Origin: Escherichia phage vB_EcoA_4HA11
Length of the DNA: 64,000 nt
Sequence record: MN445184
Strand: one strand, 5' to 3'
Shown: positions 1,981 through 58,517 of the stretch, one piece after another
Position numbering within the stretch: the stretch's first letter is position 1
Layout of the letters: each line of letters begins with the position of its first letter
Translations under genes and position numbers: made by a program
The notes under the pieces: model-generated
Databases searched by the model: none
Seen by the model: only the letters and a program-made list of their open reading frames with translations
What the model was told of the DNA's origin: nothing

Positions 1981-2495
1981 TTCGTTTCCTCTTGCTTGTT
2001 GATCGTAATTAATAAATCGGTGCCCAAGACTTTCTTGGACAATATATTGATTGCTTCGTGAATCGCCATTATTGACGGGAGTTTTTCATCGTTAATTTCG
2101 GAACCCCCGCGTTCTGTTAAATACATATTACGCAGACGATTGTGCTGTGCCCTGTTGACACAAGAAACATTCAATGCGATATTCAGGATATACATCATTT
2201 GTTCAGTTGTAACATCCTTTGGAATAGCATGAACATAATATATCGCATCTTCAAAATAGATATGCTGCAATGACTCTGGAATTTCTTCCCCGCCAAAAGC
2301 AAAATCTTCAATGCGTTTAAAAAGTGTTTCCGGCTCTGGTGTTGTAATATGTTGTGTTACAGTAGCCGCACCATTTGGCCCTTTCTTGAAATTGGTCGCA
2401 ATAACGACATGACCGCCTGGTTTAATAAACTCAGCGAAGTTCTCTGCCATGTACGGGGCATGTTCCGCATAATATGATACGACGACTGTAAACAT
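1965..2495 (-). CDS. Hypothetical protein
   Basis: 176-aa ORF in the operon, start/stop overlaps with neighbours; no family recognised. Confidence 0.45.
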   Translation of the reverse strand: MFTVVVSYYAEHAPYMAENFAEFIKPGGHVVIATNFKKGPNGAATVTQHITTPEPETLFKRIEDFAFGGEEIPESLQHIYFEDAIYYVHAIPKDVTTEQMMYILNIALNVSCVNRAQHNRLRNMYLTERGGSEINDEKLPSIMAIHEAINILSKKVLGTDLLITINKQEETKWPIH

Positions 2496-5317: not shown

Positions 5318-5377
5318 TAAACAAAAGGAGCTGCTATTATAGCAGCCCCTTCATCTATTGAATGCTTCTGAATTAAA

Positions 5378-6337
5378 TTACGCAGCAGCTTTCGCTTCGG
5401 CCAACGCCTGTGGCAACCATTCATTGATTGCTTTCACCAGAGATTCGGCATCAGTTTCTTTGATTTTCTGGCGTTTGGTGAATGATTTACCATTCACATA
5501 CAGACTGAACCCCCAGCCGCCGGAAACGATCGGCGCCAGATCAACATAAGTATTGGTGCGGGCGTGTGGATTGGCTTCATCTGCCAGTTCGGTAACAGGG
5601 AACTGGAACCAGCGCATATCCGGATTCACATAGCTCAAATAAACCCCAGGCACAACCCCCGATTCAACCGCAGCCAGGATAGGACCATAATTGGATGCGC
5701 GAGCCGCTTCAACCATTTCTTCACGCTTGTTATGACGACGCTTGCGTTCTTCGGTAGAAGATGCAGGGCGCATTTCAGAAGATTTCTTGGCCAGAACCGC
5801 CTTCGCGTTCGCTAAAGCCTGATCATCCTTCGGATTTTCAACGTCGGCGATTGCTTCAGCAACGGTTGTGCCCAGCATACGACGGCGAACTTCTTCAGCA
5901 CGGGCTTGCGCTTCTTCGTCAAGAACTTCTTCGCCTTCAACTACCAGGGAAATGGAACCGTCTTTGTTGACTTCAAGAGAACCGTCTTCGACGGTCTGGG
6001 AATTTTGATCACCGACAGGTTGCCCAACCGTTTCTTCGGCGTCAATCACCGGATTTGATTCACCGTCGCCCTGTTTAACCCCCGCATCTTCGGTCGGTTT
6101 AACTTTTTCGGCTTCAGCGCGGTCAAGAGCTTCGAGAGTCTCTTCTTTCTCTTCCTGGCTCAGACCTTCAATGAGTTCAAAGCCGTTGGCTGACTGGAGG
6201 ACGCCTTCCATCATACGGCGTAACGTGACGTTGCCGATGATAAGGTCTGCACCTTTGATTTCTGCTTGAAGATCAGCAGCGGTTTTACCATCAATTTCAA
6301 ATTTCAGGCCGGACTCGATATGAAGAATATAGGACAT
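5378..6337 (-). CDS. Hypothetical protein with long acidic low-complexity linker
   Basis: 319 aa; first gene of the operon after a ~170-bp intergenic region; E/D-rich middle between two globular ends. Confidence 0.5.
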   Translation of the reverse strand: MSYILHIESGLKFEIDGKTAADLQAEIKGADLIIGNVTLRRMMEGVLQSANGFELIEGLSQEEKEETLEALDRAEAEKVKPTEDAGVKQGDGESNPVIDAEETVGQPVGDQNSQTVEDGSLEVNKDGSISLVVEGEEVLDEEAQARAEEVRRRMLGTTVAEAIADVENPKDDQALANAKAVLAKKSSEMRPASSTEERKRRHNKREEMVEAARASNYGPILAAVESGVVPGVYLSYVNPDMRWFQFPVTELADEANPHARTNTYVDLAPIVSGGWGFSLYVNGKSFTKRQKIKETDAESLVKAINEWLPQALAEAKAAA

Positions 6338-6510
6338 AATAAAAACCCTTTTGTGTAGTAACCTTCTTTGGCAGTCTAATGTTCAACTGTGCGTCTGGAA
6401 CATTAATATACTGCCTTTTTAGAAGATGTAAACCACTTTTTATTGAAAAGTTGGTTAACACTTCTGTGTTAGACAACGGAACGCTGTATCAGCGCGGACT
6501 GGCGTGAATA

Positions 6511-6798
6511 TTAACTTTGTATATCAATATTGAAAACTGTTTCAGGTGGCCACATGGCAGACAACTCGATCTGTGTGAACTTCGGTTGAACATACTGATC
6601 TAACACTTCATCCCAGAGAGCATGTTCTATGTTAGCAATCAACAATTCGTCGTCCACTATTTCGACGGAATGAACCACTATCCGGTGGTCATAAGTCAAA
6701 GCATCGCTCACATGATCATTTTCTGCTCTCAGGTGCTGCATTATGAAATATTCGATTACAGATTCCAGTACCGTGTTCAGACGAACATATTTCTTCAT
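6511..6798 (-). CDS. Hypothetical protein
   Basis: 95-aa ORF on the coding strand of the block. Confidence 0.4.
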   Translation of the reverse strand: MKKYVRLNTVLESVIEYFIMQHLRAENDHVSDALTYDHRIVVHSVEIVDDELLIANIEHALWDEVLDQYVQPKFTQIELSAMWPPETVFNIDIQS

Positions 6799-12619: not shown

Positions 12620-13121
12620 TATTGTTCTCCAGTTCATAATCCCGTTCTTTAACATATTCATAAAGACGAGAAGTAATTCGGTCGGCATTGCCTGTGGTAT
12701 TCTTCACAACCCAACCGCTCGTAAGGACATCCATTTTATATCCACAATCATTATCTTGAAAATAACTTTTAATTGATTCAAGCCGACGACGTTTATGAAA
12801 ATATGGTATTAATTCGCCAATGATGACACAATCGGGATAATGCTTATCCAGAGTGTTTATGTCTCGTTGCACCCAAACCGGAATAACATCATCATCTTCA
12901 ATTGGGCTGTACGTTGGATCAACGATAATCACATTGAATCCATAATTCAATAAATCTTTAACTCCCAGCCACCCGAATTTCATATCGGACACGGTCATGG
13001 CGACATTCTTTATCCCCAATTTATTTGCAAAATCTGTGAGTAATACAAAAAAGTCCGTGTTTGCATCCGGATAATTAATTGCGAGTTGCTCCCCCACTTT
13101 ACTGAAACAGAACGCGTGCAT
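12597..13121 (-). CDS. Hypothetical protein
   Basis: 174-aa ORF, ATG at 13121. Confidence 0.45.
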   Translation of the reverse strand: MHAFCFSKVGEQLAINYPDANTDFFVLLTDFANKLGIKNVAMTVSDMKFGWLGVKDLLNYGFNVIIVDPTYSPIEDDDVIPVWVQRDINTLDKHYPDCVIIGELIPYFHKRRRLESIKSYFQDNDCGYKMDVLTSGWVVKNTTGNADRITSRLYEYVKERDYELENNNAKRRTR

Positions 13122-13134
13122 TTTCAGTCCTCGT

Positions 13135-13142
13135 TATAAATA
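13135..13142 (+). promoter_or_regulatory. T4-type late promoter TATAAATA
   Basis: Exact TATAAATA ~29 nt upstream of ATG 13171, with GTGGAG between. Confidence 0.6.
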
Positions 13143-13170
13143 CAATTACAATATACCGTGGAGATACATT

Positions 13171-13977
13171 ATGAATTTACCATCATTGCCCAAAACTGAG
13201 AGAACACATAAAAGTGATTTCTGGCCGACTGTGATCAAATACCGCGCCTTTACAGCAGGGCAACAGACCATGTTACTTCAGGTTGCTGATCCGAACACTC
13301 CTATGAGTGAGCGCGTGGCAACATTGGAGCAACTATTTGACAGTTGTGTTGATGCTGGCGTTCCCTTTAGTAAACTGCCAATCGGTGTTACTGAAGAAGT
13401 ATTTTTAAAGATGCGCTGTATATCTATCGGCGAGGTCATGAAGATACGTTACAAATGTAATAACAAAGTTCAAGCCGAAACCAATGAAGGTGGTGAAGAA
13501 CCAGTTTCTGGCCTTAAAGATTGTGGTCAAGAGCTTGTGTTACCGATCCCGCTCAATCAGGTAAAATGCGTGTCCCCAGAAGGCTTCAGGGAGACGTTTG
13601 ATCTACCAGGTGGTTATCATATAAAGATGCGCCAGCCGTCCTTCTCGGATGCCTCAGTGCTTAATGAAGCATCCTCTGTTGAACAAATGATTGCCACCTT
13701 TATCGATTGTCTGTATGACGACGATGGTCAGGTTTGGAAGGTGGAAAATCCGGCTGAACCTGGTATCGATCCAGAAGTTGCTAAAGAACGCCAACGCATT
13801 AAGGATGAATTTGTCAAATGGGTCGGGGACAATATTGAATCTGAGATTGTTCAGGACATTTCGAATGATTTCTTTAAAAAGATTCCGCGTATTCGTTACG
13901 CGACAAAAATTAAATGCCCTTCGTGTGGGAAAGAACACGAAGTCAAATTTAACAGTGTCACCGAGATTTTCATTTAA
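13171..13977 (+). CDS. Late protein, probably baseplate or virion-associated, with C-terminal CxxC
   Basis: 268 aa; late promoter and SD; followed by a hairpin terminator and then gp5/gp25. Confidence 0.55.
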   Translation: MNLPSLPKTERTHKSDFWPTVIKYRAFTAGQQTMLLQVADPNTPMSERVATLEQLFDSCVDAGVPFSKLPIGVTEEVFLKMRCISIGEVMKIRYKCNNKVQAETNEGGEEPVSGLKDCGQELVLPIPLNQVKCVSPEGFRETFDLPGGYHIKMRQPSFSDASVLNEASSVEQMIATFIDCLYDDDGQVWKVENPAEPGIDPEVAKERQRIKDEFVKWVGDNIESEIVQDISNDFFKKIPRIRYATKIKCPSCGKEHEVKFNSVTEIFI

Positions 13978-41275: not shown

Positions 41276-41490
41276 TGTACTCCTTCAAAAATGTAAATAT
41301 AAGCACCCAATGTGAGTGCAGTTATTGTAACCGAAGAAATCAGCAGTAGGAAAGTTACTCTCACCCGTTTGCGCCAACGTTTACTTCGGTAGATTTTAGT
41401 CTCTTTCAAGTATTTGAAAAAGAAAAATAAAATGAATGTTGAAATTACGAATATGAACAGATAACGGATTAACCCGATCATATTTCCCAC
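41272..41490 (-). CDS. Small membrane protein, upstream partner of the SPFH lipoprotein
   Basis: 72 aa, two TM helices separated by a basic loop (RSKRWRKRVR); ATGA overlap with the SPFH gene. Confidence 0.45.
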   Translation of the reverse strand: MGNMIGLIRYLFIFVISTFILFFFFKYLKETKIYRSKRWRKRVRVTFLLLISSVTITALTLGAYIYIFEGVH

Positions 41491-41798
41491 CCTGTGCTAC
41501 GCAGATGATCAAAATAATCGTTGAGTTCGTCAATATCTTCGATATCAACCCAACGATCATCCAGTCCCATATCATTTAGATCTTCTTCAGTCAGATCATG
41601 TTGATAAATCTGAATGCCCGAAACATTACAATAATCCGGCTTGATATTGTTGTTGAACTGGAACAAATCATAATCAGCCAGAGTATTCTTCAGGCGCTGC
41701 GCTTCTTCAAATGTTGGAACCTCAACATGAAAAGCGATCCCAGGAACCTGGGGAATATGCCAAACACGAAATTTAAGTTCAAATGGTTTATTCGACAT
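41478..41798 (-). CDS. Hypothetical protein
   Basis: 106-aa ORF. Confidence 0.4.
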   Translation of the reverse strand: MSNKPFELKFRVWHIPQVPGIAFHVEVPTFEEAQRLKNTLADYDLFQFNNNIKPDYCNVSGIQIYQHDLTEEDLNDMGLDDRWVDIEDIDELNDYFDHLRSTGWEI

Positions 41799-42117
41799 GG
41801 GGTTCTCCCTGAGACAGTATGGTTTTCATCTGTTCACGCGTGATAATTGTTTCAACAAGATTCTCGTCAATCATCATTTCGTTTAACAGTTCACAACCCA
41901 GCACGTGTGGTCGTGCCATATACGGCATGGCGTTGAGTTTTTCTTCTATGTCAAGAACGCGCTTGACGGTCAGACCCATAGAAGAAAAGGGAACAGGATA
42001 AAAGAATGAAATAATCTGGTTATCCATCCCGTTTGAAAATCTTACCAACAATACATCACACCATACGCCGGACATATTACACCTCCAGACGGTTACAATG
42101 AGAAAGCGCGTTATCAA
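41788..42117 (-). CDS. Hypothetical protein
   Basis: 109-aa ORF; the true start may be an internal Met. Confidence 0.4.
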   Translation of the reverse strand: MITRFLIVTVWRCNMSGVWCDVLLVRFSNGMDNQIISFFYPVPFSSMGLTVKRVLDIEEKLNAMPYMARPHVLGCELLNEMMIDENLVETIITREQMKTILSQGEPHVE

Positions 42118-42745
42118 TCTGTTCCCGAGACAGATATTCCAACGGGTTGCGAGAATACGCTTCTAACAGCAGCAGTTGGAGCACAGCGCGATTACGAGTT
42201 TCACTCTCCATCATGATACCGTTCATATGTGGTGAACGGGCTGTCCATACAACATACTGACCTAAATCGTCGTTGGCAGTCAGGCTAATGCGAAACTGAT
42301 TGCACAATTTGTCGATTAACACATAATCATGTGTGAACGTCCCTTCAGTTTTCCAGCTTGATTTCTTCACCTGAAGAGCTTCACCACGAGTTCTGAATTC
42401 TAACGTCACTCCATGAGTTTCATTGTCGAAATGAACAACTCTCTGAGTTTCATTTATTAGAGTCCGGTTCATATTATATGCGAAGAAACGGGCGTCGATC
42501 TCCCTATTGCTCATGGAATTAAAATCGATCGGCCAAAATCGTGCACGCATAATCGCGCCTTCTGGCAATACAATTAGTCCATTTTCACGGGAGACATAGC
42601 AAAGACGTTTAACTGCAGGGTCAGGATGTTCCACACAATAAACGGAAATTCCAGTGGGAAGGATAGCGTGGGCGACAACACCAGATCTTTCAAAATATAA
42701 ATTACCCTGGTCAGCCCCGATGATAATACGGCTCTTGTTGTTCAT
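42077..42745 (-). CDS. Hypothetical protein
   Basis: 222-aa ORF. Confidence 0.45.
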   Translation of the reverse strand: MNNKSRIIIGADQGNLYFERSGVVAHAILPTGISVYCVEHPDPAVKRLCYVSRENGLIVLPEGAIMRARFWPIDFNSMSNREIDARFFAYNMNRTLINETQRVVHFDNETHGVTLEFRTRGEALQVKKSSWKTEGTFTHDYVLIDKLCNQFRISLTANDDLGQYVVWTARSPHMNGIMMESETRNRAVLQLLLLEAYSRNPLEYLSREQIDNALSHCNRLEV

Positions 42746-46553: not shown

Positions 46554-46871
46554 TTATTTGCAGAGAACAACGACGAGTTCAGCTAACTCTCCGAGGGTAG
46601 GATCATCTCCATGTTTACCCACCCACTCGTCACTAATTTCTACATCGTACTCTTCTTCGATTTCCATGACCAGCTCAATCATGTCAAGATCGTCACCACC
46701 GAGGTCATTCTTAACCCGTAACGGCGCTAATGCATCGATATTATCATCAATGTTATCAAACTTTTCCTTGTGATCCCCGTTGCGCCAAGTTTCCATGTTC
46801 AGGTTGTCACAAGCGTACTGAGCCAGAACACGCATTACTTCAACATAAGTTGGTTTGTTTGACATAAGCAT
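46554..46871 (-). CDS. Acyl-carrier-protein-like protein with Asp replacing the phosphopantetheinylated Ser
   Basis: 105 aa; DLGGDDLDMIELVMEIEEEYDVEISDE aligns with the ACP core [27 protein letters not shown]; the Ser position is Asp. Confidence 0.6.
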   Translation of the reverse strand: MLMSNKPTYVEVMRVLAQYACDNLNMETWRNGDHKEKFDNIDDNIDALAPLRVKNDLGGDDLDMIELVMEIEEEYDVEISDEWVGKHGDDPTLGELAELVVVLCK

Positions 46872-46908: not shown

Positions 46909-49296
46909 TTAGATTTTGACTTCTTTTTCAGCCAGTTCGGCAGTGACGGTGTATTTCACCCCATCAACTTCCACATCCATAGTGGATTCTTCCAAATCCA
47001 GGTCGGTAAACCAACCATGGCCTGCAACAATCCCATAAACTACCTTGGACAGCGTTTTGTTCAGGGCGCGGACTTCGTTGATAGCTGCTTTTGCTGCGTC
47101 TCCGATCCAACTTTCGATCAGCTTTTTCTGAGTCTCTTCCGGTACGCTGGTGATCATCGGTGATTTAACGAATGCATTGTATTCAGCCAGGGCATTAGCG
47201 ATCAGCTGATCAGCGACATTCAGTTTTTTACCGTCCGTCTGTTTTTTGATAACAGACGCGATGCTCGGCAGTGAAGATGCGCCTTTGATTTTCACATTCA
47301 ATTCACGACTCATATAGACATCGGTTGATTCTACAGAAGAAGTCTTCGGTGAAAATCCATAGTCGCGAATGCCGTTTGCTGACAGGAAATCAGCCGCTTC
47401 TTTGCCATATTTTGAAGCCAGACCAGTAGCGTTGCCTTTACCAACCAGTTCATCACGGTAGAATTTCAGAACTTTTTGCTTTGCCTTCAATGCTTCACGG
47501 CGCACATTGTCTGCAAAGAATTCAGCAGCACTGATATTCTTTGTCATGGCGCGGTTAACCATTGGGACACTTTCCAGATTTACAATGAAGACTTCCGGCC
47601 CACCAAACACATGAACACCCATGGCAGTCAAATCCTGTGCCACCTTAGCCCGAACAATCGGAGAATCTGCAGTGATAGGCATTGTTTTCAGGTTGATGAT
47701 ACCATCCTTGACAATAGTGTAATTGCGATAACGCCAGGTTCCCAGCTCTTCAGGAAGTTCATATTTCTTCTGTACAAACTCAGGCACAACAACCGTTCCG
47801 TGTTGAACTGTCTGCACACTGATGTTAGGACGTTCTGAATTGTAGACCAAATTGCTGATCGGGACAATCCCTTTATCATCTGCTGGATTGAATTCGGGGG
47901 TCCAATCTTCGTGCTCGGCCAGTTTGAGCGCCAGGGCTTTACGCTCTTCTTTAGAAGTCGCATTCGCAATCTCTTCGGCCAACTTGTCTTCGGTGTCATC
48001 AACTTTCTGTACAGTACCGCGCCCAATGCTCTTGTAAGAGAATAGCGGATGCTTGGTGACGATAGAGACATCGGCTTCGGCCAGGTAGGTCAAAACATCA
48101 ACAATGGTCGTTGCATCTTCAGCCGGAACCATATTATAATCGATGCCATCAACTCCTCGCAGAGATTCGTCTACGATAGCCTGAGTCAGATCGACTTTGA
48201 TGTTGGAATAGTCCTGCTTGGTGAAACAGTTGCTGTACTGTTTGATGAAGTGGACGTCACCCGTCTTCTTCAGCGCGGCCCAGACCAGATCGGCGTCCAT
48301 GGTATACACGCCGTAAAATGCCAGCACGTATGCCGCTTGGATGTCTGCCAGATTATCCAGCTGGTCGATCATGTTGGGGTTTACAACCCACAGCTGAGAA
48401 ACGCTTTCAGGGATGCTGACGTGGCCAATAGGGTGCTCTTCATCAGGATGCACAGCTAAAACAGTCGCCACGCCATTTTCAACATAAATGGCATGGGTAT
48501 AAACCAGAGGAACATCGACTACAACTTTCGGTGAAGAAGTTTTCAGCACGTTTTCCAATTCGGTCTGATATTCATTCTGGCCTTCGGCGAATACGTGGGT
48601 CGCACCAGAACGTTCTGCCATTAGCGCCAGCAGTTCGCGATTACAATACCAACCGTATTCGATGAAGGTAATGTTATCAAACGCTTTGGGCAGTACTTCA
48701 GCGGCATCCAGGATTTCATTAGAACGCCAGCAGTTGTCATATCCGTCGGTCATGAATGCCAGGTTGTTAACATAACCAGGTTTATTCAGGCTAATGGCAG
48801 TTTCCGCAGCCAGTTTCAGCGGCTCAACAAAACCAGTACAACCAGAAGGCTTCAGGAAACGGTCAATTAGATTATTGATCTCACTGAGGTCGGTTGCACT
48901 GTTAATCTGACGTCCGGCAAATACCGTTCCGAAATCACCGCGAGATGAAAAGTAAAGGATGCTCACAGTATCTTCCGGTTTCACCAGGGAAGGCAGGTTC
49001 TCCTTCAGATGCTTACGGACTTCTGGAAGTGAACGATACATGGAACCGGAGATATCCACAACGATTACATGGTTAGACGGCGCGACGGTCGCAACCGCAT
49101 TCTTAAATGTTAATGATTCAATCATCGTTTTGACCTTTTTGGGCTTTGGAGTGTGTTTGGAGTTCGCGTCGGCGTTCTCCAGCATAGTTTCAATGAAATC
49201 CCGGTTGTTTTCCATTTGGGCGACCAGAACATCACTGGGACGGAATGAATTGTCAAGACAATCAAGTCCGGCGCGTTTTAATTTGTTGTCGGTCAT
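46909..49296 (-). CDS. Large von Willebrand factor A (vWA) domain protein
   Basis: ORF track 46909..49323 (TTG); ATG at 49296. HVIVVDISGSMYRS is a MIDAS-type DxSxS motif, with FMTDGYD downstream. Confidence 0.6.
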   Translation of the reverse strand: MTDNKLKRAGLDCLDNSFRPSDVLVAQMENNRDFIETMLENADANSKHTPKPKKVKTMIESLTFKNAVATVAPSNHVIVVDISGSMYRSLPEVRKHLKENLPSLVKPEDTVSILYFSSRGDFGTVFAGRQINSATDLSEINNLIDRFLKPSGCTGFVEPLKLAAETAISLNKPGYVNNLAFMTDGYDNCWRSNEILDAAEVLPKAFDNITFIEYGWYCNRELLALMAERSGATHVFAEGQNEYQTELENVLKTSSPKVVVDVPLVYTHAIYVENGVATVLAVHPDEEHPIGHVSIPESVSQLWVVNPNMIDQLDNLADIQAAYVLAFYGVYTMDADLVWAALKKTGDVHFIKQYSNCFTKQDYSNIKVDLTQAIVDESLRGVDGIDYNMVPAEDATTIVDVLTYLAEADVSIVTKHPLFSYKSIGRGTVQKVDDTEDKLAEEIANATSKEERKALALKLAEHEDWTPEFNPADDKGIVPISNLVYNSERPNISVQTVQHGTVVVPEFVQKKYELPEELGTWRYRNYTIVKDGIINLKTMPITADSPIVRAKVAQDLTAMGVHVFGGPEVFIVNLESVPMVNRAMTKNISAAEFFADNVRREALKAKQKVLKFYRDELVGKGNATGLASKYGKEAADFLSANGIRDYGFSPKTSSVESTDVYMSRELNVKIKGASSLPSIASVIKKQTDGKKLNVADQLIANALAEYNAFVKSPMITSVPEETQKKLIESWIGDAAKAAINEVRALNKTLSKVVYGIVAGHGWFTDLDLEESTMDVEVDGVKYTVTAELAEKEVKI

Positions 49297-49385
49297 CAGG
49301 CTCTCGTGAGTTATATTTCCCAACTATTTCAACATGGGACTATTATATTACGACAGGCGGTATTGATGCCAATTAATATAATAAA

Positions 49386-49446: not shown

Positions 49447-50319
49447 TTATTTAAAGGAGTCTACAATGGATTTGAAAATATAATCTTTGGAGCGTTGTTG
49501 TACCGGGAGTTCTCCATACGGAACCATGCAAGGGTGTTGCTTGGTCTGAGGGTCTTTGACTGGGCCATACACCCATCCCTCAGCCTCCTTCTCCGCCATC
49601 CAGCTCTCATGCGATTCGCTGGGCTTACGATCACCAGTGAGATGGAAGATAACACCTTTGCAAGCGCTCTCACGCTGCCAGGCCGGAGATTGTTCCCAAG
49701 GCAGTTGAGAGTCGTCACCAACAGACTTGCAGTATGCGCGGTTGGCTTCATGACAAATCTTGGCGATGCGCAGAACCAATGGCGAATAAGTGAGATCGAG
49801 TTTGGAGTTGGCGCGCAGGAAATCACTAACAGCCTTACGAGATTTGGCGTTGTGAGAGTCAACAACAAGTTCCATGTCATCCGGCCCACAAACGAAAGAC
49901 GCCAAGAAGCGCTCGCCATTTTCCGCTCTGAACATCACGTCCTGAATCATCACATTGAAGCCGAGGTGATAGGCCGGGCAGAGGGCGCTACGTTCAACAG
50001 CGTATTGATCGATCCGGATCTCTGCCGTTTCCGTGGCTTTGGCCAACAGATCTTGTTCAACAAGCGCCCGGTACGCCTCCAGCTGCCACAGCTGGTCGAA
50101 GGTGTTATTGTAGGAAATCTCTTTGCCCAGGGCTTCATCGAAGTTGGCCGGGTCTATGGATGTGCTGGGCTTGGTGCCGTGAACGACGAAGCCGTTATCC
50201 ATCTTGAAATGACAAGTGATAGCCCGGTGACCGCCGACTTCGCGGTCTTCGTAAATCACCTCAGCGATATGTGACTTCAGGACTTCAGGAGTGAGTTTGA
50301 TGCCAGTACGAGTTGTCAT
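49447..50319 (-). CDS. Gp49-like N-terminal domain plus RyR-repeat protein
   Basis: 290 aa; N-terminal GIKLTPEVL...ITCHFKMDNGFVVHG; C-terminal WMAEKEAEGWVYGPVKDPQTKQHPCMVPYGELP matches the RyR-domain signature as recalled. Confidence 0.5.
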   Translation of the reverse strand: MTTRTGIKLTPEVLKSHIAEVIYEDREVGGHRAITCHFKMDNGFVVHGTKPSTSIDPANFDEALGKEISYNNTFDQLWQLEAYRALVEQDLLAKATETAEIRIDQYAVERSALCPAYHLGFNVMIQDVMFRAENGERFLASFVCGPDDMELVVDSHNAKSRKAVSDFLRANSKLDLTYSPLVLRIAKICHEANRAYCKSVGDDSQLPWEQSPAWQRESACKGVIFHLTGDRKPSESHESWMAEKEAEGWVYGPVKDPQTKQHPCMVPYGELPVQQRSKDYIFKSIVDSFK

Positions 50320-50327
50320 GTGTTATC

Positions 50328-50702
50328 CTATGATATTTGTTTACAGACCTCCACTACTTTACGGCACATGACGATATCGAACAAGCCGATATGGCAATCG
50401 CGCTTCTTGATCCCCAGATTATGAGCCAGCCAGCTGTAAGCATCACTCCTGCTCCTCTGCCCACTTTTCCAGATAGGGTCAAACGACCTATGAGCTTCCT
50501 GCTTAGCAGCACGGAGAGCGGCATTCGCCATCCTTCCCAGAGGTTGTCTACCATCCCCATGGGTATGGCAACCCACACGAGCGTCGCATGGCGAGCATCC
50601 CCAGAACTTCAGTTTGTGTAGATCTGGGCGATGAGGGTAGAGTACATCACCACTGACGTATTTGGCAGGAAGACCGCAATAATCACAAATAACTTGTTTC
50701 AT
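50328..50702 (-). CDS. Cys/His-rich zinc-binding protein
   Basis: 124 aa; ICDYCG...GCSPCDARVGCHTH. Confidence 0.4.
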   Translation of the reverse strand: MKQVICDYCGLPAKYVSGDVLYPHRPDLHKLKFWGCSPCDARVGCHTHGDGRQPLGRMANAALRAAKQEAHRSFDPIWKSGQRSRSDAYSWLAHNLGIKKRDCHIGLFDIVMCRKVVEVCKQIS

Positions 50703-50719: not shown

Positions 50720-50740
50720 AACCCCGCACACGGCGGGGTT
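50720..50740 (-). terminator. Hairpin terminator
   Basis: AACCCCGC-ACACG-GCGGGGTT followed by TCTTTT on the minus strand. Confidence 0.55.
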
Positions 50741-50761: not shown

Positions 50762-51133
50762 TTATTTCAGGAGTTTTTCCAGTTCTTCAACAGAGAGACC
50801 TTCCAGTTCCTGCTGTTTCTTACGCTGGATCAGTTCCATGATCGCCTGGTTATTCGCTTTACGTTCGGCGGCGGTTGCGCTTTCGTCACGTTCTTTCAGT
50901 TTAACACCGATGATCGCTTTCACGATATCGAAACGCAGTTGTAACTGAGAGTCGACTGCGCTTTTCACGCCGATGAAATCTTCTTCATCGCTGGCGGCTT
51001 CCTTCACCTGACGGCTGAGGTCTTTCGCCAGTTCGTTTAGGGCATTCAGGTTCAGATCCCAAACCTGCTCAACAGACAGCAGACCTTTGTTAGAGTTGAA
51101 ACGCAGTTTTAAACGGGTTGCTTGATCAAACAT
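50762..51133 (-). CDS. Hypothetical protein
   Basis: 123-aa ORF, helical and charged. Confidence 0.4.
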   Translation of the reverse strand: MFDQATRLKLRFNSNKGLLSVEQVWDLNLNALNELAKDLSRQVKEAASDEEDFIGVKSAVDSQLQLRFDIVKAIIGVKLKERDESATAAERKANNQAIMELIQRKKQQELEGLSVEELEKLLK

Positions 51134-51170: not shown

Positions 51171-53189
51171 TTAGAAAATGACTTTTACAGTACGGTTAAA
51201 CGCGCCGGACACTTTGACGAACACGTGGTTGCGTTGCGTCGTCGAGAATCCCAGACCGGACAGTTGGTTTTCATTCGGCTGGACTTTCATTTTACTACCC
51301 AACATTTCAAAAACCTTACGATGTTTATCCAGTTCCGGCTTCAGATATTCGTTGTAGAAACCACGAGTACCTTCAGGATTAGCACAGCCTTCAAGAATGA
51401 AGAACACGTGCTTGTTGCCTGTCTGCTCGCCATCCCAATGGTTTGGTGAATTCAGGACCAGCTGTACTTTCTGGAAGGTCGCAGTCTTGATACCCCAAAC
51501 TTCTTTAGACTTATCAACATTAGCCAGTTCGGACTTAATGCCAACAACTTGTTTGTCTTTAACAGTCAGGATGACTGCAGTGATACGCCCCTGATCTTTC
51601 AGGCCAGGATGGCTGAAACGATGCGTTGCGCCTTTGTATTCTACTTCGACTTCAAACCCTTCGTCGATTTTTTCACGTTGATTGTAGTTGTGGATTTCGA
51701 AACGGTATTCACCATCGCGCAGCTTGCTTTCATCTGTAAAGATGATATTTTCCACCGGGGCGCGGTTTGGATCAATACCATCCATACCGTTCATATCGAT
51801 ATCCAGATGGGCACCTGTCATAGAGCGGCGATCACGGAAGTAAACGTGCTCCATGTTGTTGAACATATGCAGATCGAGGTCGTCGTTGTTGTGCCACGCC
51901 AAGGAAACGCGCAGATACCCGTCAACTTTACCACCAGCAGCCTTTACACGTTCTTTAATGGAATCGGTCACTTCACCGTTGTAAGACCAGGAGAAACCGT
52001 TGTTCCACTTGAACAGGTTAGGCGCATCTGGGTTCGCCGGAGCAACCAGGGACATCAGGTTGCTAGTATGAGAATTCTCTACAAGCACTTCCATTGAATG
52101 CGCTTTTGGCAGAACATTGCTCAGGAAATCATCAACGCTGATCTCTTCAACTTTTTCCAGGGATTTGGTCGGAGTTTTCACTTCGGCGGCCAGCTGTGCA
52201 AACGGATCCATCGCTTTCTGAGCGGCCAGATCTGCGAACAGAACGTTGTTGATTGTCAGATCATCGTAAACCGCATAACGACGCGCCAGTGAGTCTTCCA
52301 AACCCAGAGCAATAACTTCTTTCTGAGCGTTTTCGATCATGGATTTTGAAACCAGCGCTGTCGGACGTTTGTAGTTCGCCGGAGCAACTTTGGATTCAAA
52401 CGATTTAACAGCCTTTTCCAGTTCCACGCCTTCGCTGATATCTGTCAGCAGAGTGCCGATAACTGTGTTGCGGATGCCGTGTGGAACATGATTGTTTGAA
52501 CGGTATCCAGTATGCCACGCCCACAGAGAACGGGCTGATTCGGGGACTTGTTCATATGCCTTTTTGGTTTCAACAAATCCCTTCACTGCTGCTTTGTGTT
52601 CTGCGCCGCGATACAGAGAATTCTGGTCAATCAGTTCCAGAACGATTTCAGCTGATTCCAGAGTAATTTCACGCAGACCGCGTTCAAACAATTCAATAGC
52701 CTGGCGAATTTCACCTTTTTTCGAAGCGATTGCGTCCGGACGCAGAACATAGCTACCAAGTAATTGGGTATGGAAATGATTGTAAGTACGGATTTTGCCA
52801 TCTTCACCAGATTCGTGATTGTGAGACAGGCCGACTTTGGCAGAATCGTTAAAATAAACATCGACGATTGCGTGTTGTTTGACATACGCGGAAAGAGCCG
52901 CAGCCACCACGTCATATTCATTACCCAGATCAATGTTGTCCCAGATAGAAATTACGTTCAGTTCTGAATCGATGGTGACAACACCGCCGATGTTACGGAT
53001 GAATTGTTTACAGCAGGTGCAATCGTGTTCAGTACGTTCGCGGTACAGCGGGTTAGTACCAGCAGGGAAAGATGCCAGATACAGATCCCAAAGAGCATCT
53101 TTATCGATATTGGTCATGAACAGACCAGTTGCGGACATCGCCAGCACGTTGTTATTAACTGCCGTTGCGAAGGGTTTGAATTCTGCCAT
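51171..53189 (-). CDS. Large hypothetical protein (672 aa)
   Basis: Long ORF; no Walker or polymerase motifs seen; Cys cluster HDCTCCKQF near the N-terminus. Confidence 0.55.
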   Translation of the reverse strand: MAEFKPFATAVNNNVLAMSATGLFMTNIDKDALWDLYLASFPAGTNPLYRERTEHDCTCCKQFIRNIGGVVTIDSELNVISIWDNIDLGNEYDVVAAALSAYVKQHAIVDVYFNDSAKVGLSHNHESGEDGKIRTYNHFHTQLLGSYVLRPDAIASKKGEIRQAIELFERGLREITLESAEIVLELIDQNSLYRGAEHKAAVKGFVETKKAYEQVPESARSLWAWHTGYRSNNHVPHGIRNTVIGTLLTDISEGVELEKAVKSFESKVAPANYKRPTALVSKSMIENAQKEVIALGLEDSLARRYAVYDDLTINNVLFADLAAQKAMDPFAQLAAEVKTPTKSLEKVEEISVDDFLSNVLPKAHSMEVLVENSHTSNLMSLVAPANPDAPNLFKWNNGFSWSYNGEVTDSIKERVKAAGGKVDGYLRVSLAWHNNDDLDLHMFNNMEHVYFRDRRSMTGAHLDIDMNGMDGIDPNRAPVENIIFTDESKLRDGEYRFEIHNYNQREKIDEGFEVEVEYKGATHRFSHPGLKDQGRITAVILTVKDKQVVGIKSELANVDKSKEVWGIKTATFQKVQLVLNSPNHWDGEQTGNKHVFFILEGCANPEGTRGFYNEYLKPELDKHRKVFEMLGSKMKVQPNENQLSGLGFSTTQRNHVFVKVSGAFNRTVKVIF

Positions 53190-53285
53190 GGTATAGTCTT
53201 CCTGTTTCAGTTCAAAGTGAGCGCCCTTATCGGGGCGCGTCGTTAAAGTGAGGTCAATATACGCTGAAAAGATTTATTGAAAAGT

Positions 53286-53693
53286 TTAAACGGGAATCAT
53301 GTTTACTCGAATACTTCTGAACCGTTTCCCGTCATAACTGGTGTAACCAACAACCGTAACTGATCTTGTTCCCTTTGGATAACCCTTTGGAGTACTCACA
53401 ACGCGCACAGGGCGCTTGCTTTCTTTATCGTATTTCGAAATCAATTTCAAAAGATGTTTATCGATCTGGCTTAAACTATCACCATACACGGTATATTGAT
53501 ATTGCTCGCAATTACCCAACAAAATGATAAATTTATAAATTTTGTCGACCAAAGATCGACATTTTGGATCATCATAATGATGCCGACAGACTTGACATTC
53601 ATATTTCCCAGTATTCATGTTGAACAATTTTGTCGCCCGACTTGAACACGCTGGGCATACTTTCCATGAACGATGATGTTTTACGGGTTTCAT
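53286..53693 (-). CDS. Zinc-ribbon protein
   Basis: 135 aa; CPACSS...CQVCRHHYDDPKC. Confidence 0.45.
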   Translation of the reverse strand: MKPVKHHRSWKVCPACSSRATKLFNMNTGKYECQVCRHHYDDPKCRSLVDKIYKFIILLGNCEQYQYTVYGDSLSQIDKHLLKLISKYDKESKRPVRVVSTPKGYPKGTRSVTVVGYTSYDGKRFRSIRVNMIPV

Positions 53694-54916
53694 TTTTTCA
53701 TCTTCTCTAACAGATTAATAGAACGAACGGGAGTCTTCTGTAATGGCTGATTAACTTCACCACCATTATACCCCACCTTTCCTCGAGGTTTCTCCCCGCG
53801 CATCACCGCCTCAACGCAGCGGGTATATTTCTGAAGTTCACAGAACATGTTCTCCAACTGCATAACATTCATGCAACGGTCTTCCGGTTCTTCTGCCGAC
53901 CAAAATTCATTACGTTTATACCCGTACTGAGCGAACAATTGATCTTGATGATCACGAACCCAGAATATGCATTCTTCATGCGTCATGCCGTCCTTGTCCA
54001 AAAATAACAGATCGATACCAGCACGGCAACCTGGACCAGCGATAGTGAAGTGGTTTTCACTGAATGGATATTCATCGATGTATGTAAAATCAACCCAAAT
54101 CTGGTATGCCAAGAATGGTCCAAGCCCCTCAATGTCGTCATACATCGCCTGGTAAACAGAGTCGGGACGGCTAAATTCCCTGAGGCGATCAAAGTAATGA
54201 GGGTGTTTGTTGACGAATGCCTTCAAAGAGCGGATGACTCGCATCGGCATGTATGGTTCCCAGCCTTCTATTTTGTATTCACCAGGATTATCTTCGGCCA
54301 GCTTCTTGGCAACCTTGTAATCCATTTCATCTATAACACCGCCAACCCGATGGACTTTTACCTTCATGCCGCCAAAGCGTTGCTCCTTGTGGTTGACAAC
54401 TAGTTCAGGGAAAGCCAGGCATTGTTTCAGACCGCCTGTATTAAACGCATTGGTGAAAACTTTGCCACCTTTAGATTCGAATTCCTGAAGAACATCTCGA
54501 CACCATTCAAGATTTATGTTTCCGAATTCTTCGATCGTCCATGGACCACCCAAAGCCTGTATAGGTTCCCACATGTTGTACATTCGGAACAATACACAGT
54601 TGAACATTTTGTCAGATAGCGTGAGATCCTGATCGAGGATGATATTATTGATCAAATTTCGAGACTGCCTATCGTGCTCTCTCCGCACGTTACAAAACTT
54701 GACTTGGCGTAATACCGGATTATCCGTCCATGGCGCTGGAAGGCATTGCACGTCCTTCTTGACATGTATCGCATAACGATCCCTCATCCATTCATATGCC
54801 AGCTGGCGGTGGAATGAACTTAACATAGGATGGGCTGATTTGATTTTGGTTTCACGGACACCGCAATATGGGATGTCATGTGGTTTATCTTTCATGGTAT
54901 CCTCTCTAGAATACAA
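53690..54916 (-). CDS. Hypothetical protein (408 aa)
   Basis: Long ORF, ATGA overlap with the downstream zinc-ribbon gene; no family recognised. Confidence 0.55.
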   Translation of the reverse strand: MYSREDTMKDKPHDIPYCGVRETKIKSAHPMLSSFHRQLAYEWMRDRYAIHVKKDVQCLPAPWTDNPVLRQVKFCNVRREHDRQSRNLINNIILDQDLTLSDKMFNCVLFRMYNMWEPIQALGGPWTIEEFGNINLEWCRDVLQEFESKGGKVFTNAFNTGGLKQCLAFPELVVNHKEQRFGGMKVKVHRVGGVIDEMDYKVAKKLAEDNPGEYKIEGWEPYMPMRVIRSLKAFVNKHPHYFDRLREFSRPDSVYQAMYDDIEGLGPFLAYQIWVDFTYIDEYPFSENHFTIAGPGCRAGIDLLFLDKDGMTHEECIFWVRDHQDQLFAQYGYKRNEFWSAEEPEDRCMNVMQLENMFCELQKYTRCVEAVMRGEKPRGKVGYNGGEVNQPLQKTPVRSINLLEKMKK

Positions 54917-54917
54917 A

Positions 54918-54942
54918 AACAGAGGCCATTATAGCCTCTGTT
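54918..54942 (-). terminator. Hairpin terminator
   Basis: AACAGAGGC-CATTATA-GCCTCTGTT with TTTTTGTAT on the minus strand. Confidence 0.55.
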
Positions 54943-54964
54943 GTTTAGTGAATAACGGATTATA

Positions 54965-55828
54965 TTAATCGAAGCGAGAGAGGTGTGTCACAGTGTTTTG
55001 AACAGGTGCGCACGCGTATACACGAACATTAGCACCCCACACCCCACACAGCTTAGGCATATTGGTATCGTTAATGATATACGCTGGCACATAACTTTCA
55101 ATTTGGCCGTTAACATCTACGGGTCGAGAAGATTTTTCAACTGCCATAGAAAGAATTACTTCCAACGTTTTTGGAGATACCAACGCCACGCCGTTCATAT
55201 CATCAACAAATACCTGACCTTCTTCAATTGCCATGCTGGCAACGATGTCATTGATCTGACGGGAAGGGGTATTCGTCAGCATATCAGAGAAATCAGGCTC
55301 TTTGAACACAGCCATGTTTTTCAGGAATTTTCCTTTCGGATATTCTTTGCCATTCCACATCACAGTCTCATTCACTTTGATGCATGCCTGAGGGAATTCA
55401 CCTTCAACGCGTAACTGGCCATCTGGGAAACCGCGTGAATAATAATATTCCAGTGCCGGACCGACTTCATCTTCTGAGCGAATAAATTTGCTCATGTTAG
55501 AGGCAAACACACGTTGTAAACATTCATCACCATTAAAACCAGCGATATGGGCCACGCCGTCATTAACAGTTGTGATATCACCCTGAGCGTCCATGATGGC
55601 TTTCAGGATTTTATCCATATCAACATCATCGGTGTCTTCTTTTGGAGTTGCCACCAGCTCAAGTTTGATGTCATGATCGAAATAAGCCGCTTCCAGTAAT
55701 TCGCGGGTCTCTTCCAGAACCAGTTTGGCCTGATTGCGAATTTTACCGAAGTCAGGGGCTGTAATATATCCAGCCGCATTACCAAAAGCCAAATTCAATC
55801 TCACGTTTTTATTAAATGTAGTTGTCAT
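54965..55828 (-). CDS. Hypothetical protein with possible MazG-like N-terminal domain
   Basis: ORF track 54965..55915; internal start MTTTF used. AKLVLEETRELLEA is MazG/HisE-like; the rest is unrecognised. Confidence 0.35.
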   Translation of the reverse strand: MTTTFNKNVRLNLAFGNAAGYITAPDFGKIRNQAKLVLEETRELLEAAYFDHDIKLELVATPKEDTDDVDMDKILKAIMDAQGDITTVNDGVAHIAGFNGDECLQRVFASNMSKFIRSEDEVGPALEYYYSRGFPDGQLRVEGEFPQACIKVNETVMWNGKEYPKGKFLKNMAVFKEPDFSDMLTNTPSRQINDIVASMAIEEGQVFVDDMNGVALVSPKTLEVILSMAVEKSSRPVDVNGQIESYVPAYIINDTNMPKLCGVWGANVRVYACAPVQNTVTHLSRFD

Positions 55829-55844
55829 AATATAGCGACTCCAG

Positions 55845-56240
55845 TTATTCGCTTTTTGCCCGACTTGGGCGAATAGTGTATTTTGGAACCAATTTCCACT
55901 CAGAAACTTGGTCATGTTTTACAACTTTGATCCGAGACATGTCAGCCACTTCGGTTATTTGTTCCGGATGCAAGATCTTAACCATATTCCATTGCTCCAG
56001 AAGCCGTATAATCCGATTCATACGCAGGACATCTTCACGCGTAAAGCCGTTATAGTGCCCATCTAGCATGAACAAATGCTTGAAATGCACGATGTGATAT
56101 CTGCCAAATTTATGCAGGATATGACACGTTTGATACAAGGTGTTAGGCTCTTGACGAGTGTTAACCCCTATCCGACTCAGCGTTTCCTTGATACCCAGGA
56201 AAATCCCTGGTTTGTCTTGGTTCAATTGAACTTCAACCAT
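55845..56240 (-). CDS. regA: Translational repressor RegA
   Basis: ORF track 55845..56309. From the internal ATG at 56240, MVEVQLNQ...KETLSRIG...LYQTCHILHKFGRYHIVHFK...EWKLVPKYTI parallels T4 RegA; a longer form from 56309 is possible. Confidence 0.8.
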   Translation of the reverse strand: MVEVQLNQDKPGIFLGIKETLSRIGVNTRQEPNTLYQTCHILHKFGRYHIVHFKHLFMLDGHYNGFTREDVLRMNRIIRLLEQWNMVKILHPEQITEVADMSRIKVVKHDQVSEWKLVPKYTIRPSRAKSE

Positions 56241-56338
56241 ACAGTCAACAATGCTGGCCTCATCGTTGACAGCTGAAAGTTTTAAGATGTCCAGCGTATT
56301 ACGCGCCATGACTCATACCCCTTTAACAATTATTTGAA

Positions 56339-56761
56339 TTACTTAGCCTTGCGCGGTTTGGCTTTTTCGTTGCTGTTGGAACGTTCGACCTTCGCCTTGA
56401 TTTCAGCCAGGACTTCTTTCGGCAGGAATCGAACATATTCTGAAGCCTTTTCAGGACTGATGTAATAATACTCAGAAATCAATTTCACATCAGGATCCAT
56501 AGCTCCCTTCTTAGACCACTTGTCATAGCGACGTTTTGCCGGAATGCTATGAAACGCCAGGTTCCATTGCATCCAAGGAGTAATGGCATGGAAGCGGTTC
56601 ATTTGTTCGGCAACCACAAGCGTGTCTTTACTCTGAGCAAGGCCGCGCCGAGTCATGAAAGGATCAAAAGCCTTTCTGATTTCGGGGTCTTCGGTCATCA
56701 ACAGATTCTCTTTGGTGCTATTCAACGCACCGAGGTAATCGAACAGTGACGGAGCGGCCAT
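56339..56761 (-). CDS. 62: Clamp-loader small subunit gp62
   Basis: 140 aa between gp44 and regA as in T4; SIPAKRRYDKWSKK resembles T4 gp62 AVPRGKRYGKWAK. Confidence 0.6.
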   Translation of the reverse strand: MAAPSLFDYLGALNSTKENLLMTEDPEIRKAFDPFMTRRGLAQSKDTLVVAEQMNRFHAITPWMQWNLAFHSIPAKRRYDKWSKKGAMDPDVKLISEYYYISPEKASEYVRFLPKEVLAEIKAKVERSNSNEKAKPRKAK

Positions 56762-56765
56762 AATA

Positions 56766-57755
56766 TTACTTCCATTTGATGTTGAGCATGACGTTAGTCA
56801 AGAAGTAAACGCCGTGCAACCAGACGTCGCCGACGGAACGATGTTCGATCTGAGACTGACCACAGACGCATACCAGATCAGGGATTGACTCGTTTTGAAT
56901 CAAAGGAGTCTTTTCCTTGTTCTGGGGAACGCAGAAATGGAAGAAACGGGAATAAAAATCTTCAGTGATGTAGTTTTGGTTGTCGGTCACCCACTGCTTC
57001 ATCCCAGCCCAATCATTGGTTTTTAGGAAATCCACCAACGCTTGGAATTCCCCTGCTTTAACCTGTGCCAGAGCGCGTTCATCGATTTTACCAAACGTGG
57101 TGGCATTATCCTGAAGAGTTCCCATAATTTTGCGATTATCTGGGAAATATGATTTCACAATGGAAGCAATTACACCAGCTTCATACGGAATGCCTTCCTC
57201 TGTCAGGATAGTTGCGCAACGACGCATGAATTGAAGTTTAACTTCATCTGCTTCCTTTTCAGACCAGATAAAATCAATTTCGCGACAGCGGGAACGCAGA
57301 GGTTCGTTAACGCGCTGTTTCGCATTAGTCGTCAGGATGAAGGAGCAGTTTTTGGAGACTTTCTCTACGATGCCTTTCAGGGATTCCTGTGCCGCCATAG
57401 AAAGTCGCTCAACTTCATCAAGGATAACGACTTTACGGCCACCGAAAACACTGACGCCAGTTGCGTATTGAATAACACGGTCACGGATGACATCAATGCT
57501 GTTATCCAGTGACGCATTGATCATCAACGGTTTGATACAACCGATTTCGTTGCAAACAGCCAGAGCAGAAGTAGTCTTGCCCGTACCAGGCTGAGGGGAA
57601 TAGAACAGCATTGAGGGGATGTTTCCATTGCCTGATGTAACATAGCCATGGATTTTTGCACGGACGTCTGAAGGGAGGACGATCTCATCCAGATTGTCAG
57701 GGCGATATTTGTTTTCCCACGCGTATTGATCTGTGACGATAGTGATGTTAGACAT
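56766..57755 (-). CDS. 44: Clamp-loader large subunit gp44 (AAA+ ATPase)
   Basis: 329 aa; ENKYRP, Walker A SPQPGTGKTT, Walker B ILDE, SRC motif SRCREI. Confidence 0.85.
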   Translation of the reverse strand: MSNITIVTDQYAWENKYRPDNLDEIVLPSDVRAKIHGYVTSGNGNIPSMLFYSPQPGTGKTTSALAVCNEIGCIKPLMINASLDNSIDVIRDRVIQYATGVSVFGGRKVVILDEVERLSMAAQESLKGIVEKVSKNCSFILTTNAKQRVNEPLRSRCREIDFIWSEKEADEVKLQFMRRCATILTEEGIPYEAGVIASIVKSYFPDNRKIMGTLQDNATTFGKIDERALAQVKAGEFQALVDFLKTNDWAGMKQWVTDNQNYITEDFYSRFFHFCVPQNKEKTPLIQNESIPDLVCVCGQSQIEHRSVGDVWLHGVYFLTNVMLNIKWK

Positions 57756-57833: not shown

Positions 57834-58517
57834 TTAATCCAGCTGCATGCCGACGTAATAGTTGATGGTGCCGTCTGCGGATTGGAAGTTAACCAGTTGC
57901 ATTTCGGCACAGGCGCGGATCACGTAGTTGCCTTCGATCATTTTCAGGTTGACCACATCAACAGGCATAGCAAAATCACCCAGAGTTGTTTCACCCAACT
58001 CAACAGTGTAATCGTTGGAATTGTCGATAGTAGTGGTCGTGCCCACCAGACGAGTTTTACCGCCGCTGGCAACCAGACGTACAGTTTTGTGGCCCAGAGT
58101 AGAACAGGCGCGAGTCAGCTCTTTCATTTTTTCAGGAGTGACTGTTGCTTCAAATTCTACAGACGGAAGATCGATGCTGTCTGCCGGAACGACAGTCAGT
58201 TCTTTAGCGGAACGCCAGAATTGCAGTTGGGAGTTTTCACCTTTCAGCAAAATGTGGTCTTCCGACATTTCAATTTTACCGCCTTTAAAACTCGGCAGAC
58301 GCTGGATTGCCAGCAATTTGGTCAGATCCAGAATCGGGAATTCGAACGGGAAGTCTTCGTCAATGTCGGCAATAGCGATAACTGTACTGGAATCGTTAAC
58401 AGTGCGCAACTTTTTACCAGGTGCCAGAACGATAGAGGGGCAGATGGTTTCAAAGTTAGCCAGCAGTTGTAAAGTGCGTTCGGAGAGAGTGATCTCTTGC
58501 ATTAGTTGTATCCTCAA
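57834..58517 (-). CDS. 45: Sliding clamp gp45
   Basis: 227 aa; position upstream of 44-62-regA and overall pattern similar to T4 gp45; GAGGA SD. Confidence 0.8.
   Translation of the reverse strand: MRIQLMQEITLSERTLQLLANFETICPSIVLAPGKKLRTVNDSSTVIAIADIDEDFPFEFPILDLTKLLAIQRLPSFKGGKIEMSEDHILLKGENSQLQFWRSAKELTVVPADSIDLPSVEFEATVTPEKMKELTRACSTLGHKTVRLVASGGKTRLVGTTTTIDNSNDYTVELGETTLGDFAMPVDVVNLKMIEGNYVIRACAEMQLVNFQSADGTINYYVGMQLD

Follow-up and report, generated by a model that had tools for sequence, protein, structure and literature searches.

The gene block at positions 51171–55828 (minus strand) of a 64,000-nucleotide stretch of Escherichia phage vB_EcoA_4HA11 (sequence record MN445184; the whole stretch is referred to here as the window) had been described in an earlier note, made from the sequence alone, as a group of large unrecognised proteins located where phage T4 has its DNA polymerase. 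The block encodes, in order of transcription, a 287-amino-acid MazG-like protein, a gp160-like protein, a 135-amino-acid zinc-ribbon protein and a 672-amino-acid DUF8224 protein, and it is probably a mosaic composed of three units that are unrelated to one another and recur across ViI-like (Ackermannviridae) phages; it is not a polymerase substitute. It is neither novel nor one functional unit and consists mostly of known biology; the ViI-like phages examined carry these genes as a matter of course, and the original finding is ordinary for a phage family that has been sequenced so often. Two features deserve further attention, namely a catalytic-type motif in the gp160-like protein and the strict pairing of the DUF8224 gene with a phrog_2018 gene.

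In T4, gene 43 comes after regA. On the minus strand of the window, the sliding clamp gene gp45 (57834–58517) and the clamp loader genes gp44 (56766–57755) and gp62 (56339–56761), all of which are open reading frames (ORFs) carrying the same names in the annotations of phage Mutine and Salmonella phage ViI, and the translational repressor gene regA (55845–56309; Pfam Translat_reg, 4.1e-35; phrog_242; also named alike in Mutine and ViI) were confirmed to be followed by the ORFs of 287, 408, 135 and 672 amino acids, as the earlier note had stated. However, the close relative Salmonella phage S118, which is 99.7% identical over the block, possesses an intact T4 gp43-like gene at 144957–147953, ~57 kb from the locus, and the remaining T4-type replication genes were also found in this genome type. 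Since the gp43-like gene is intact elsewhere in the genome type, the block does not stand in for the DNA polymerase, and the notion that its genes are present in place of the polymerase is functionally wrong. The reported lack of family-B polymerase and Walker motifs was upheld by motif and Pfam searches: family-B motifs A (DxxSLYPS), B (KxxxNSxYG) and C (YGDTDS) were not present in the four block proteins, the nearest family-B-like string being a chance 'DTD' in the 287-amino-acid protein; the Walker A pattern [AG]xxxxGK[ST], including a loosened version, was not found in five block proteins; and no polymerase family was observed among the Pfam matches (E≤10) of the four block proteins. Profile searches of Pfam and the PDB likewise returned no split or divergent polymerase, a possibility that the earlier note had entertained, for the 287-, 408- and 672-amino-acid proteins.

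The 4.7-kb block was shown to share 99.9% identity with Salmonella phage S117, and likewise with many other Kuttervirus (Ackermannviridae, ViI-like) genomes, the assignment to this genus being taken from the records of close relatives. Its genes are kept in 265–558 phage records, and the annotated relatives Mutine and ViI exhibit an identical gene order; the block proteins can therefore not be called novel. The term 'unrecognised' is apt only in part, as it fails for the HMUDK_hel assignment of the gp160-like protein, for the MazG-like PHROG assignment and for DUF8224, which is a known family. As a side observation, record MN871475.1 ('Pseudomonas phage Pa-sanjiao', listed host P. aeruginosa PAO1) shares 99.7% identity with the Kuttervirus block, and probably has a wrong host label or derives from a contaminated sample.

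According to the ORF list, every gene between 50.7 and 58.5 kb is located on the minus strand, and the flagged interval extends exactly from the stop of the 672-amino-acid gene to the start of the 287-amino-acid gene. The mechanical ORF of the latter comprises 316 amino acids (to 55915) and runs 71 nucleotides into regA; its start at ATG 55828, with a TGGAG ribosome-binding site, is conserved and matches public annotation. For the mechanical 408-amino-acid ORF (to 54916), the true start is most likely ATG 54895, yielding a predicted protein of 401 amino acids, because a GAGAGGA ribosome-binding site is present there and TTG 54916 is located in the T-tail of a hairpin. This terminator-like hairpin (54918–54942, minus strand; 11-bp stem, then a T-run) occupies the gap between the MazG-like and gp160-like genes, while a second one (50720–50740, minus strand; 8-bp stem with six GC pairs, then a T-run) is located 3′ of the gene for a 123-amino-acid phrog_2018 protein (50762–51133, minus strand; phrog_2018, 2.3e-47), which falls outside the flagged interval. 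The Mutine annotation has terminators at both positions. Read in the direction of transcription (54942–54918 and 50740–50720), the hairpins flank the gp160-like, zinc-ribbon, DUF8224 and phrog_2018 genes, which suggests that these four genes constitute one putative transcription unit, in this genus only. The terminator calls rest on position and stem strength, since terminator-like sites are not in excess across the region as a whole (10, versus a shuffled expectation of 8.3).

Judged by its sequence, the 401-amino-acid protein (53690–54895, minus strand) is the orthologue of ViI gp160, a member of the thymidine-hypermodification set. Pfam assigns it to PF18723 HMUDK_hel ('5-hmdU DNA kinase, helical domain', in which 5-hmdU denotes 5-hydroxymethyl-deoxyuridine) at 1.7e-83 and 280.7 bits (cut-off 25), with residues 38–370 corresponding to profile positions 5–278 of 281, and at E≤0.01 the 408-amino-acid sequence matches this family only, and not PF18724 ADDT. 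Similarly, the best 120 of 417 gp160-like homologues all carry PF18723 alone. The closest functional reference is ViI Vi01_130c (record note 'orf00160'), which is 78% identical over 405 residues and likewise follows the MazG-like gene. ViI gp160 was designated 'aG/PT-PPlase1' and predicted to adopt a helix–hairpin–helix (HhH) DNA-glycosylase fold (Lee et al. 2018, PMC5889632); gp160-type proteins are common to SP10, PhiW-14, ViI and M6 (PMC5889632), and five ViI proteins, i.e. gp160 together with gp67, gp226, gp243 and gp247, were used to reconstitute 5-(2-aminoethoxy)methyl-dU (5-NeOmdU; PMC5889632). In a 2023 Ackermannviridae paper, aGPT-Pplase1 is the name given to the gene at the corresponding position. 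The Pfam names ADDT, HMUD2 and HMUDK_hel differ from the 'aGPT-Pplase1/2' of the papers, and we infer that PF18723, which forms 'clade 1' beside the amino-acid:DNA transferases of clade 2 (PF18724), was renamed from aGPT-Pplase1.

An alignment of 29 family members (42–90% identity) revealed two invariant elements. G294-P295-G296-C297 is part of the stretch IAGPGCRAG (residues 292–300, 408-amino-acid numbering), which represents an HhH-like hairpin, whereas E355-N356-x-x-C359-E360 (E355-N356-M-F-C359 in the window protein) exhibits the spacing of a transferase active site. The metal ligands of PaMx11 gp46 (PUGT) are Glu243 and Thr244, while Cys247 is the residue that attacks the flipped base at C6 (PMC11472151); the gp160-like motif retains the spacing of these three residues, with Thr replaced by Asn. 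The corresponding stretch of ZC01_009 (Pfam ADDT, 4.1e-27), a close relative of PaMx11 gp46, is DRPVNIQEVETILCKWKS, which includes 'VETILC', that of the window protein is DRCMNVMQLENMFCELQKY, and that of the gp160-type protein ZC01_013 (HMUDK_hel, 9.3e-40) is VEHTLCEFDKY. In ZC01, the gp160-type gene directly follows the kinase gene and is located between it and the dUMP hydroxymethylase gene. Profile comparison of the gp160 family with ZC01_009 using hhalign placed the best local alignment exactly on the motif, at a non-significant level (E 0.032, probability 1.6%), and the same comparison with the gp247-like protein gave no signal. PDB searches with the 408-amino-acid sequence and with the family profile returned chance-level matches only.

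As the invariant Glu/Asn/Cys motif and the HhH-like hairpin are both retained, the gp160-like protein is probably an active enzyme on 5-phosphomethyl-dU. Such an enzyme would act on this base in freshly replicated DNA, and would work beside the gp67- and gp243-like kinases, the gp247-like serine:DNA transferase and the gp226-like pyridoxal phosphate (PLP) decarboxylase, which make 5-NeOmdU. ViI-type DNA contains ordinary thymidine and ~40% 5-NeOmdU, and the hypermodification is sequence-selective, occurring at TG/TC sites. Either a specificity factor or an enzyme dealing with the sites left over would thus have a task to fulfil.

The 287-amino-acid protein (54965–55828, minus strand) matches phrog_2144 'MazG-like pyrophosphatase' (6.3e-135), and its first ~190 residues match phrog_671 'nucleotide pyrophosphohydrolase' (1.9e-18); its ViI orthologue, Vi01_131c, is 85% identical. 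It consists of a predicted all-α N-terminal domain of ~190 amino acids and a variable C-terminal domain of ~95 amino acids, and the full-length family (276 proteins) is essentially found only in Ackermannviridae. Relatives of the N-terminal domain identified by tblastn are stand-alone proteins of ~170–250 amino acids, encoded by N4-like Pectobacterium and Klebsiella phages, Pseudomonas phage Pa BHU-17 and a Vibrio Ackermannviridae phage, in which the gene is syntenic, being located after regA. When scored against superfamily profiles (PF03819, PF01503, PF12643 and PF08761), the PRA-PH cut-off of 21.3 bits was exceeded by the Vibrio Ackermannviridae relative (42% identity; 21.6 bits) and by the Pa BHU-17 relative (32% identity; 31.6 bits), while the MazG cut-off of 22 was reached only by the latter (22.0 bits). 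Across 34 aligned sequences, no variation is seen in the acidic motifs LVLEETRELLEA and DAQGDITTVNDG or at E39, E40, E43, E46, D80, D84 and D90, the assignment of these residues to the canonical EExxE...D motif having been made by eye; the C-terminal third is poorly conserved in the same alignment. The genome type contains two further all-α pyrophosphatases, namely a dUTPase_2-type protein encoded beside the hydroxymethylase and another MazG-like protein, and hhalign detected no relation between these two and the 287-amino-acid family.

These data are consistent with a divergent nucleoside triphosphate pyrophosphohydrolase of the MazG/PRA-PH superfamily, an affiliation that is shown only via relatives. 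The protein would cleave (d)NTPs to (d)NMPs and pyrophosphate through Mg2+-binding acidic helix residues, and its substrate would most likely be a pyrimidine dNTP, keeping the nucleotide pool suited to 5-hmdU DNA. By analogy, such a pool-shaping role is plausible, because Acinetobacter phage 15599 gp18, an enzyme with both dTTPase and dUTPase activity, functions in the 5-hmdU pathway (PMC13458397).

With regard to the 672-amino-acid protein (51171–53189, minus strand), nearly all of the 120 homologues listed (49–97% identity, mostly full length) carry the label PF26675 DUF8224, and a direct Pfam search with the window protein (E≤10) returned no match. The family comprises 4493 clusters at 50% identity, 1237 of which are retrieved at E≤1e-30, and identity between phage families is 40–50%. 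Members are encoded by hundreds of large phages that are not related to one another; among isolated phages, they were found in Ackermannviridae, in Vequintavirinae-type phages (CR3, CR9 and BIS47), in phiCbK-like Caulobacter phages and also in Bacillus, N4-like and Cellulophaga phages and Microcystis phage LMM01. DUF8224 is not tied to thymidine hypermodification, since it is found across phages that lack those genes, i.e. the Vequintavirinae, phiCbK-like, Bacillus, N4-like and cyanobacterial carriers. A literature search yielded no paper mentioning DUF8224. In the ViI record (NC_015296, 9301–11320), the DUF8224 gene is annotated as two genes, Vi01_129c and Vi01_128c, which align to residues 1–480 and 489–672, respectively, indicative of a frameshift or sequencing error in that record.

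Residues ~400–560 of the protein (nucleotides 51510–51992) resemble, by fold, a TerD-like β-sandwich. As the short relatives Xanthomonas phage Bosa gp06 and Klebsiella phage FBKp24 gp207 match the profile at 8–397 and 560–663 only, and lack residues ~400–560, this TerD-like part represents an insert in a conserved core (~1–400 and ~560–672). Acidic clusters are present in the insert, and PDB sequence searches with the family profile and with the isolated TerD-like segment gave no TerD match. In the N-terminal domain, Cys57 is found where a helix begins, and His138 does not vary; a papain/OTU-like reading was considered from these two residues and is not claimed here.

DUF8224 and phrog_2018 form a strictly linked two-gene module that is common to many large virulent phage families. 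Among 80 IMG/VR loci, fetched by means of the DUF8224 profile (identity 44–100%), all 80 contain a phrog_2018 homologue on the same strand, which is located directly downstream of the DUF8224 gene in 70 cases, within 300–800 nucleotides in seven and directly upstream in three; the same direct succession was observed in four unrelated contigs. The two TerD-less short relatives examined have no phrog_2018 partner. Nothing else appears to travel with the module: in the neighbourhood of 52 non-Ackermannviridae DUF8224 loci, no family was present in more than 4 of 141 neighbours, and seemingly 'conserved' minus-strand ORFs near the module were dismissed as antisense shadows of the DUF8224 and phrog_2018 genes. 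Its usual surroundings are genes of nucleic acid metabolism (DNA polymerase A, helicases, ligases and tRNA enzymes). PDB searches with the 123-amino-acid family gave chance-level matches only. The two proteins may act as a complex, in which the TerD-like insert would be a Ca2+-binding or regulatory module and the conserved core would be the working part. With hosts that are Gram-negative, Gram-positive and cyanobacterial, DUF8224 and its partner are among the more widespread, strongly conserved and function-unassigned gene pairs of large lytic phages.

Some DUF8224 genes are located near genes for polynucleotide kinase, DNA ligase or RNA ligase (Bosa, 2854–6364; another contig, 4873–6516 and 12750–13397), which hints at nucleic acid repair, but the neighbourhood survey displayed no general pattern of this kind. 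In one N4-like contig, MoxR-like AAA and DUF2201/VWA genes surround the module; a link between DUF8224 and VWA proteins was also discarded, being seen in that one contig and not in general.

The 135-amino-acid zinc-ribbon protein (53286–53693, minus strand; CPAC...CQVC; phrog_16119) contains two CxxC pairs, and its matches to zinc-ribbon Pfam families are weak and below the cut-off. There is a 4-nucleotide overlap between its start and the gp160-like stop. The gene was found in 80 phage records, versus ~400 with the gp160-like gene, and always beside the latter; ViI lacks it, the corresponding interval there being ~110 nucleotides. This gene is an accessory, optional passenger.

Two other explanations of the locus were weighed against the mosaic described above. 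The earlier note had envisaged a cluster of large novel modification-tailoring or anti-defence enzymes in the polymerase's place, a proposal that we consider unlikely. It draws on the facts that one of the four proteins belongs to the published hypermodification set, that dNTP pools could be influenced by the MazG-like protein, in the manner of phage 15599 gp18, and that the four distal genes apparently form one transcription unit. However, these genes have already been sequenced and annotated in hundreds of phages, DUF8224 and its partner are present in many phages without hypermodification genes, the zinc-ribbon gene is optional and the polymerase is intact elsewhere. Involvement in DNA modification thus stands for the gp160-like protein, is plausible for the MazG-like protein and is unsupported for the 672-amino-acid protein, whereas nothing links any block gene to anti-defence: a PADLOC search (E≤0.01), whose models represent defence rather than anti-defence proteins, gave no match for the five proteins. 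It is more improbable still, to the point of being nearly negligible, that the T4 gp43 slot is filled by the 672-amino-acid protein as a diverged or split component of the replication machinery (polymerase, primase or accessory protein). Its gene does adjoin the clamp and clamp-loader genes, genes for DNA polymerase A, helicase and ligase are found close to the module in other phages, and two public records call homologues 'DNA-directed RNA polymerase'; yet the protein exhibits no polymerase motifs and no such match by Pfam, PDB sequence or fold, the genome type possesses a complete set of T4-type replication genes including gp43, and the gene has no conserved neighbour except phrog_2018.

For the gp160-like protein, a serious rival to an enzymatic role, and one to which we assign a minority but appreciable likelihood, is that of a non-enzymatic DNA-binding helper that recruits the 5-hmdU DNA kinase or sets its sequence preference. 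The Pfam name of the family refers to a helical domain of this kinase, the family forms the C-terminal part of SP10 gp186, fused to a kinase (PMC5889632), and the gene adjoins that of the kinase in M6- and PaMx11-like phages, directly following it in ZC01. The TG/TC selectivity demands some specificity factor, and gp160 is dispensable in vitro. Conversely, an invariant Glu-Asn-x-x-Cys-Glu motif with transferase spacing is not expected in a pure binding domain, and the Kuttervirus gene is located ~49 kb from that of the gp67-like kinase (53690–54895 versus 4643–5317). Carried further, the enzymatic reading would have the gp160-type enzyme attack phosphorylated 5-hydroxymethyl-dU in DNA through its Glu/Asn/Cys centre and resolve it to a non-amino-acid product, perhaps thymidine, and, separately, DUF8224 and phrog_2018 would constitute an undescribed two-protein machine; this proposal is speculative and probably incorrect. 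If the product of the gp160-type enzyme were indeed thymidine, this would explain both the ~60% ordinary T versus 40% 5-NeOmdU and which sites stay unmodified.

Several observations weigh against the interpretation presented here. The likeness of the gp160-like protein to the transferases is statistically non-significant, and the motif match could reflect convergence or chance; Pfam now treats HMUDK_hel as a helical, possibly non-catalytic domain; and the product forms in vitro without gp160 or M6 gp55 (PMC8989533), purified kinase, clade-2 transferase and PLP decarboxylase being sufficient (Lee et al. 2021, PMC8989533). The TerD likeness of the DUF8224 insert is by fold only, with no Pfam TerD match at E≤10, no biochemical activity can be named for DUF8224, and the phrog_2018 partner was looked for in two short DUF8224 relatives only. 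For the 287-amino-acid protein itself, searches of Pfam, NCBIfam and the PDB gave no match, by sequence or by profile, and its AlphaFold2 model is poor in the helical part. To our knowledge, N4-like phages do not use 5-hmdU, and the stand-alone homologues of the N-terminal domain in these phages weaken a role that is specific to hypermodification.

A second thymidine-modification cluster is located near the start of the window, again on the minus strand, and includes genes for a dUTPase_2-type pyrophosphatase (2495–3040), a P-loop kinase-like protein (3037–3621; weak match), a thymidylate-synthase-family protein, the probable dUMP hydroxymethylase (3603–4646), and the 5-hmdU DNA kinase HMUDK_HMUD1 (4643–5317; 1.7e-116). 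The S118 genome also encodes ADDT, HMUD2 and a PLP enzyme. In the S118 RefSeq record, the 5-hmdU kinase is annotated as 'terminase small subunit' and the HMUD2 kinase as 'guanylate kinase', labels that look like misannotations. Furthermore, S118 encodes, next to its polymerase and HMUD2 kinase genes, a 260-amino-acid protein (41338–42120 of the S118 locus) that belongs by sequence match to the NT5C deoxypyrimidine 5′-nucleotidase family (7.4e-08) and is possibly a dTMP/dUMP phosphatase of the pool-shaping set.

The genes located 3′ of the DUF8224–phrog_2018 module, all on the minus strand, encode a DUF3268 zinc-finger protein (50328–50702), a 290-amino-acid protein with an N4 gp49/Sf6 gp66 domain and a RyR domain (49447–50319), an 804-amino-acid ORF with a VWA domain (46909–49323), represented in relatives by a 738-amino-acid protein and a small upstream ORF, and an acyl carrier protein (46554–46871).

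Comparison with known systems places the block proteins at different distances from characterized counterparts. The TerD-like domain resembles the tellurite-resistance/Ca2+-binding TerD proteins (PDB 2qz7 and 2kxt) in fold, but is an insert in a 672-amino-acid protein and has no ter operon context; the other ~510 residues match no solved fold. The 287-amino-acid protein resembles MazG, PRA-PH (HisE) and the dimeric dUTPases in its helical N-terminal domain with an EExxE...D signature, and differs from MazG/PRA-PH in having no direct Pfam match and an extra variable C-terminal domain of ~95 amino acids; it has in common with 15599 gp18 that the phage builds 5-hmdU-derived DNA. The amino-acid:DNA transferases (PF18724; ViI gp247, M6 gp51, PaMx11 gp46/PUGT and the Pplase2 proteins of YuA and 15599) are HhH-type DNA enzymes of the same pathway as the gp160-like protein and share with it the pattern D-R-x-x-N-(I/V)-x-x-(L/V)-E-(T/N)-x-x-C. 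Unlike these transferases, the gp160-like protein is dispensable when amino acids are transferred in vitro; it exceeds ZC01_009 in length by ~120 residues, and it displays neither significant sequence or profile similarity to them nor a PF18724 match. By contrast, ViI gp160, M6 gp55 and the C-terminal part of SP10 gp186 belong to the same family as the window protein, which is an orthologue of ViI gp160 without substantive difference from it, and ViI and the window-type genome encode the same partners, i.e. two 5-hmdU DNA kinases, an amino-acid:DNA transferase, a PLP decarboxylase and a dUMP hydroxymethylase.

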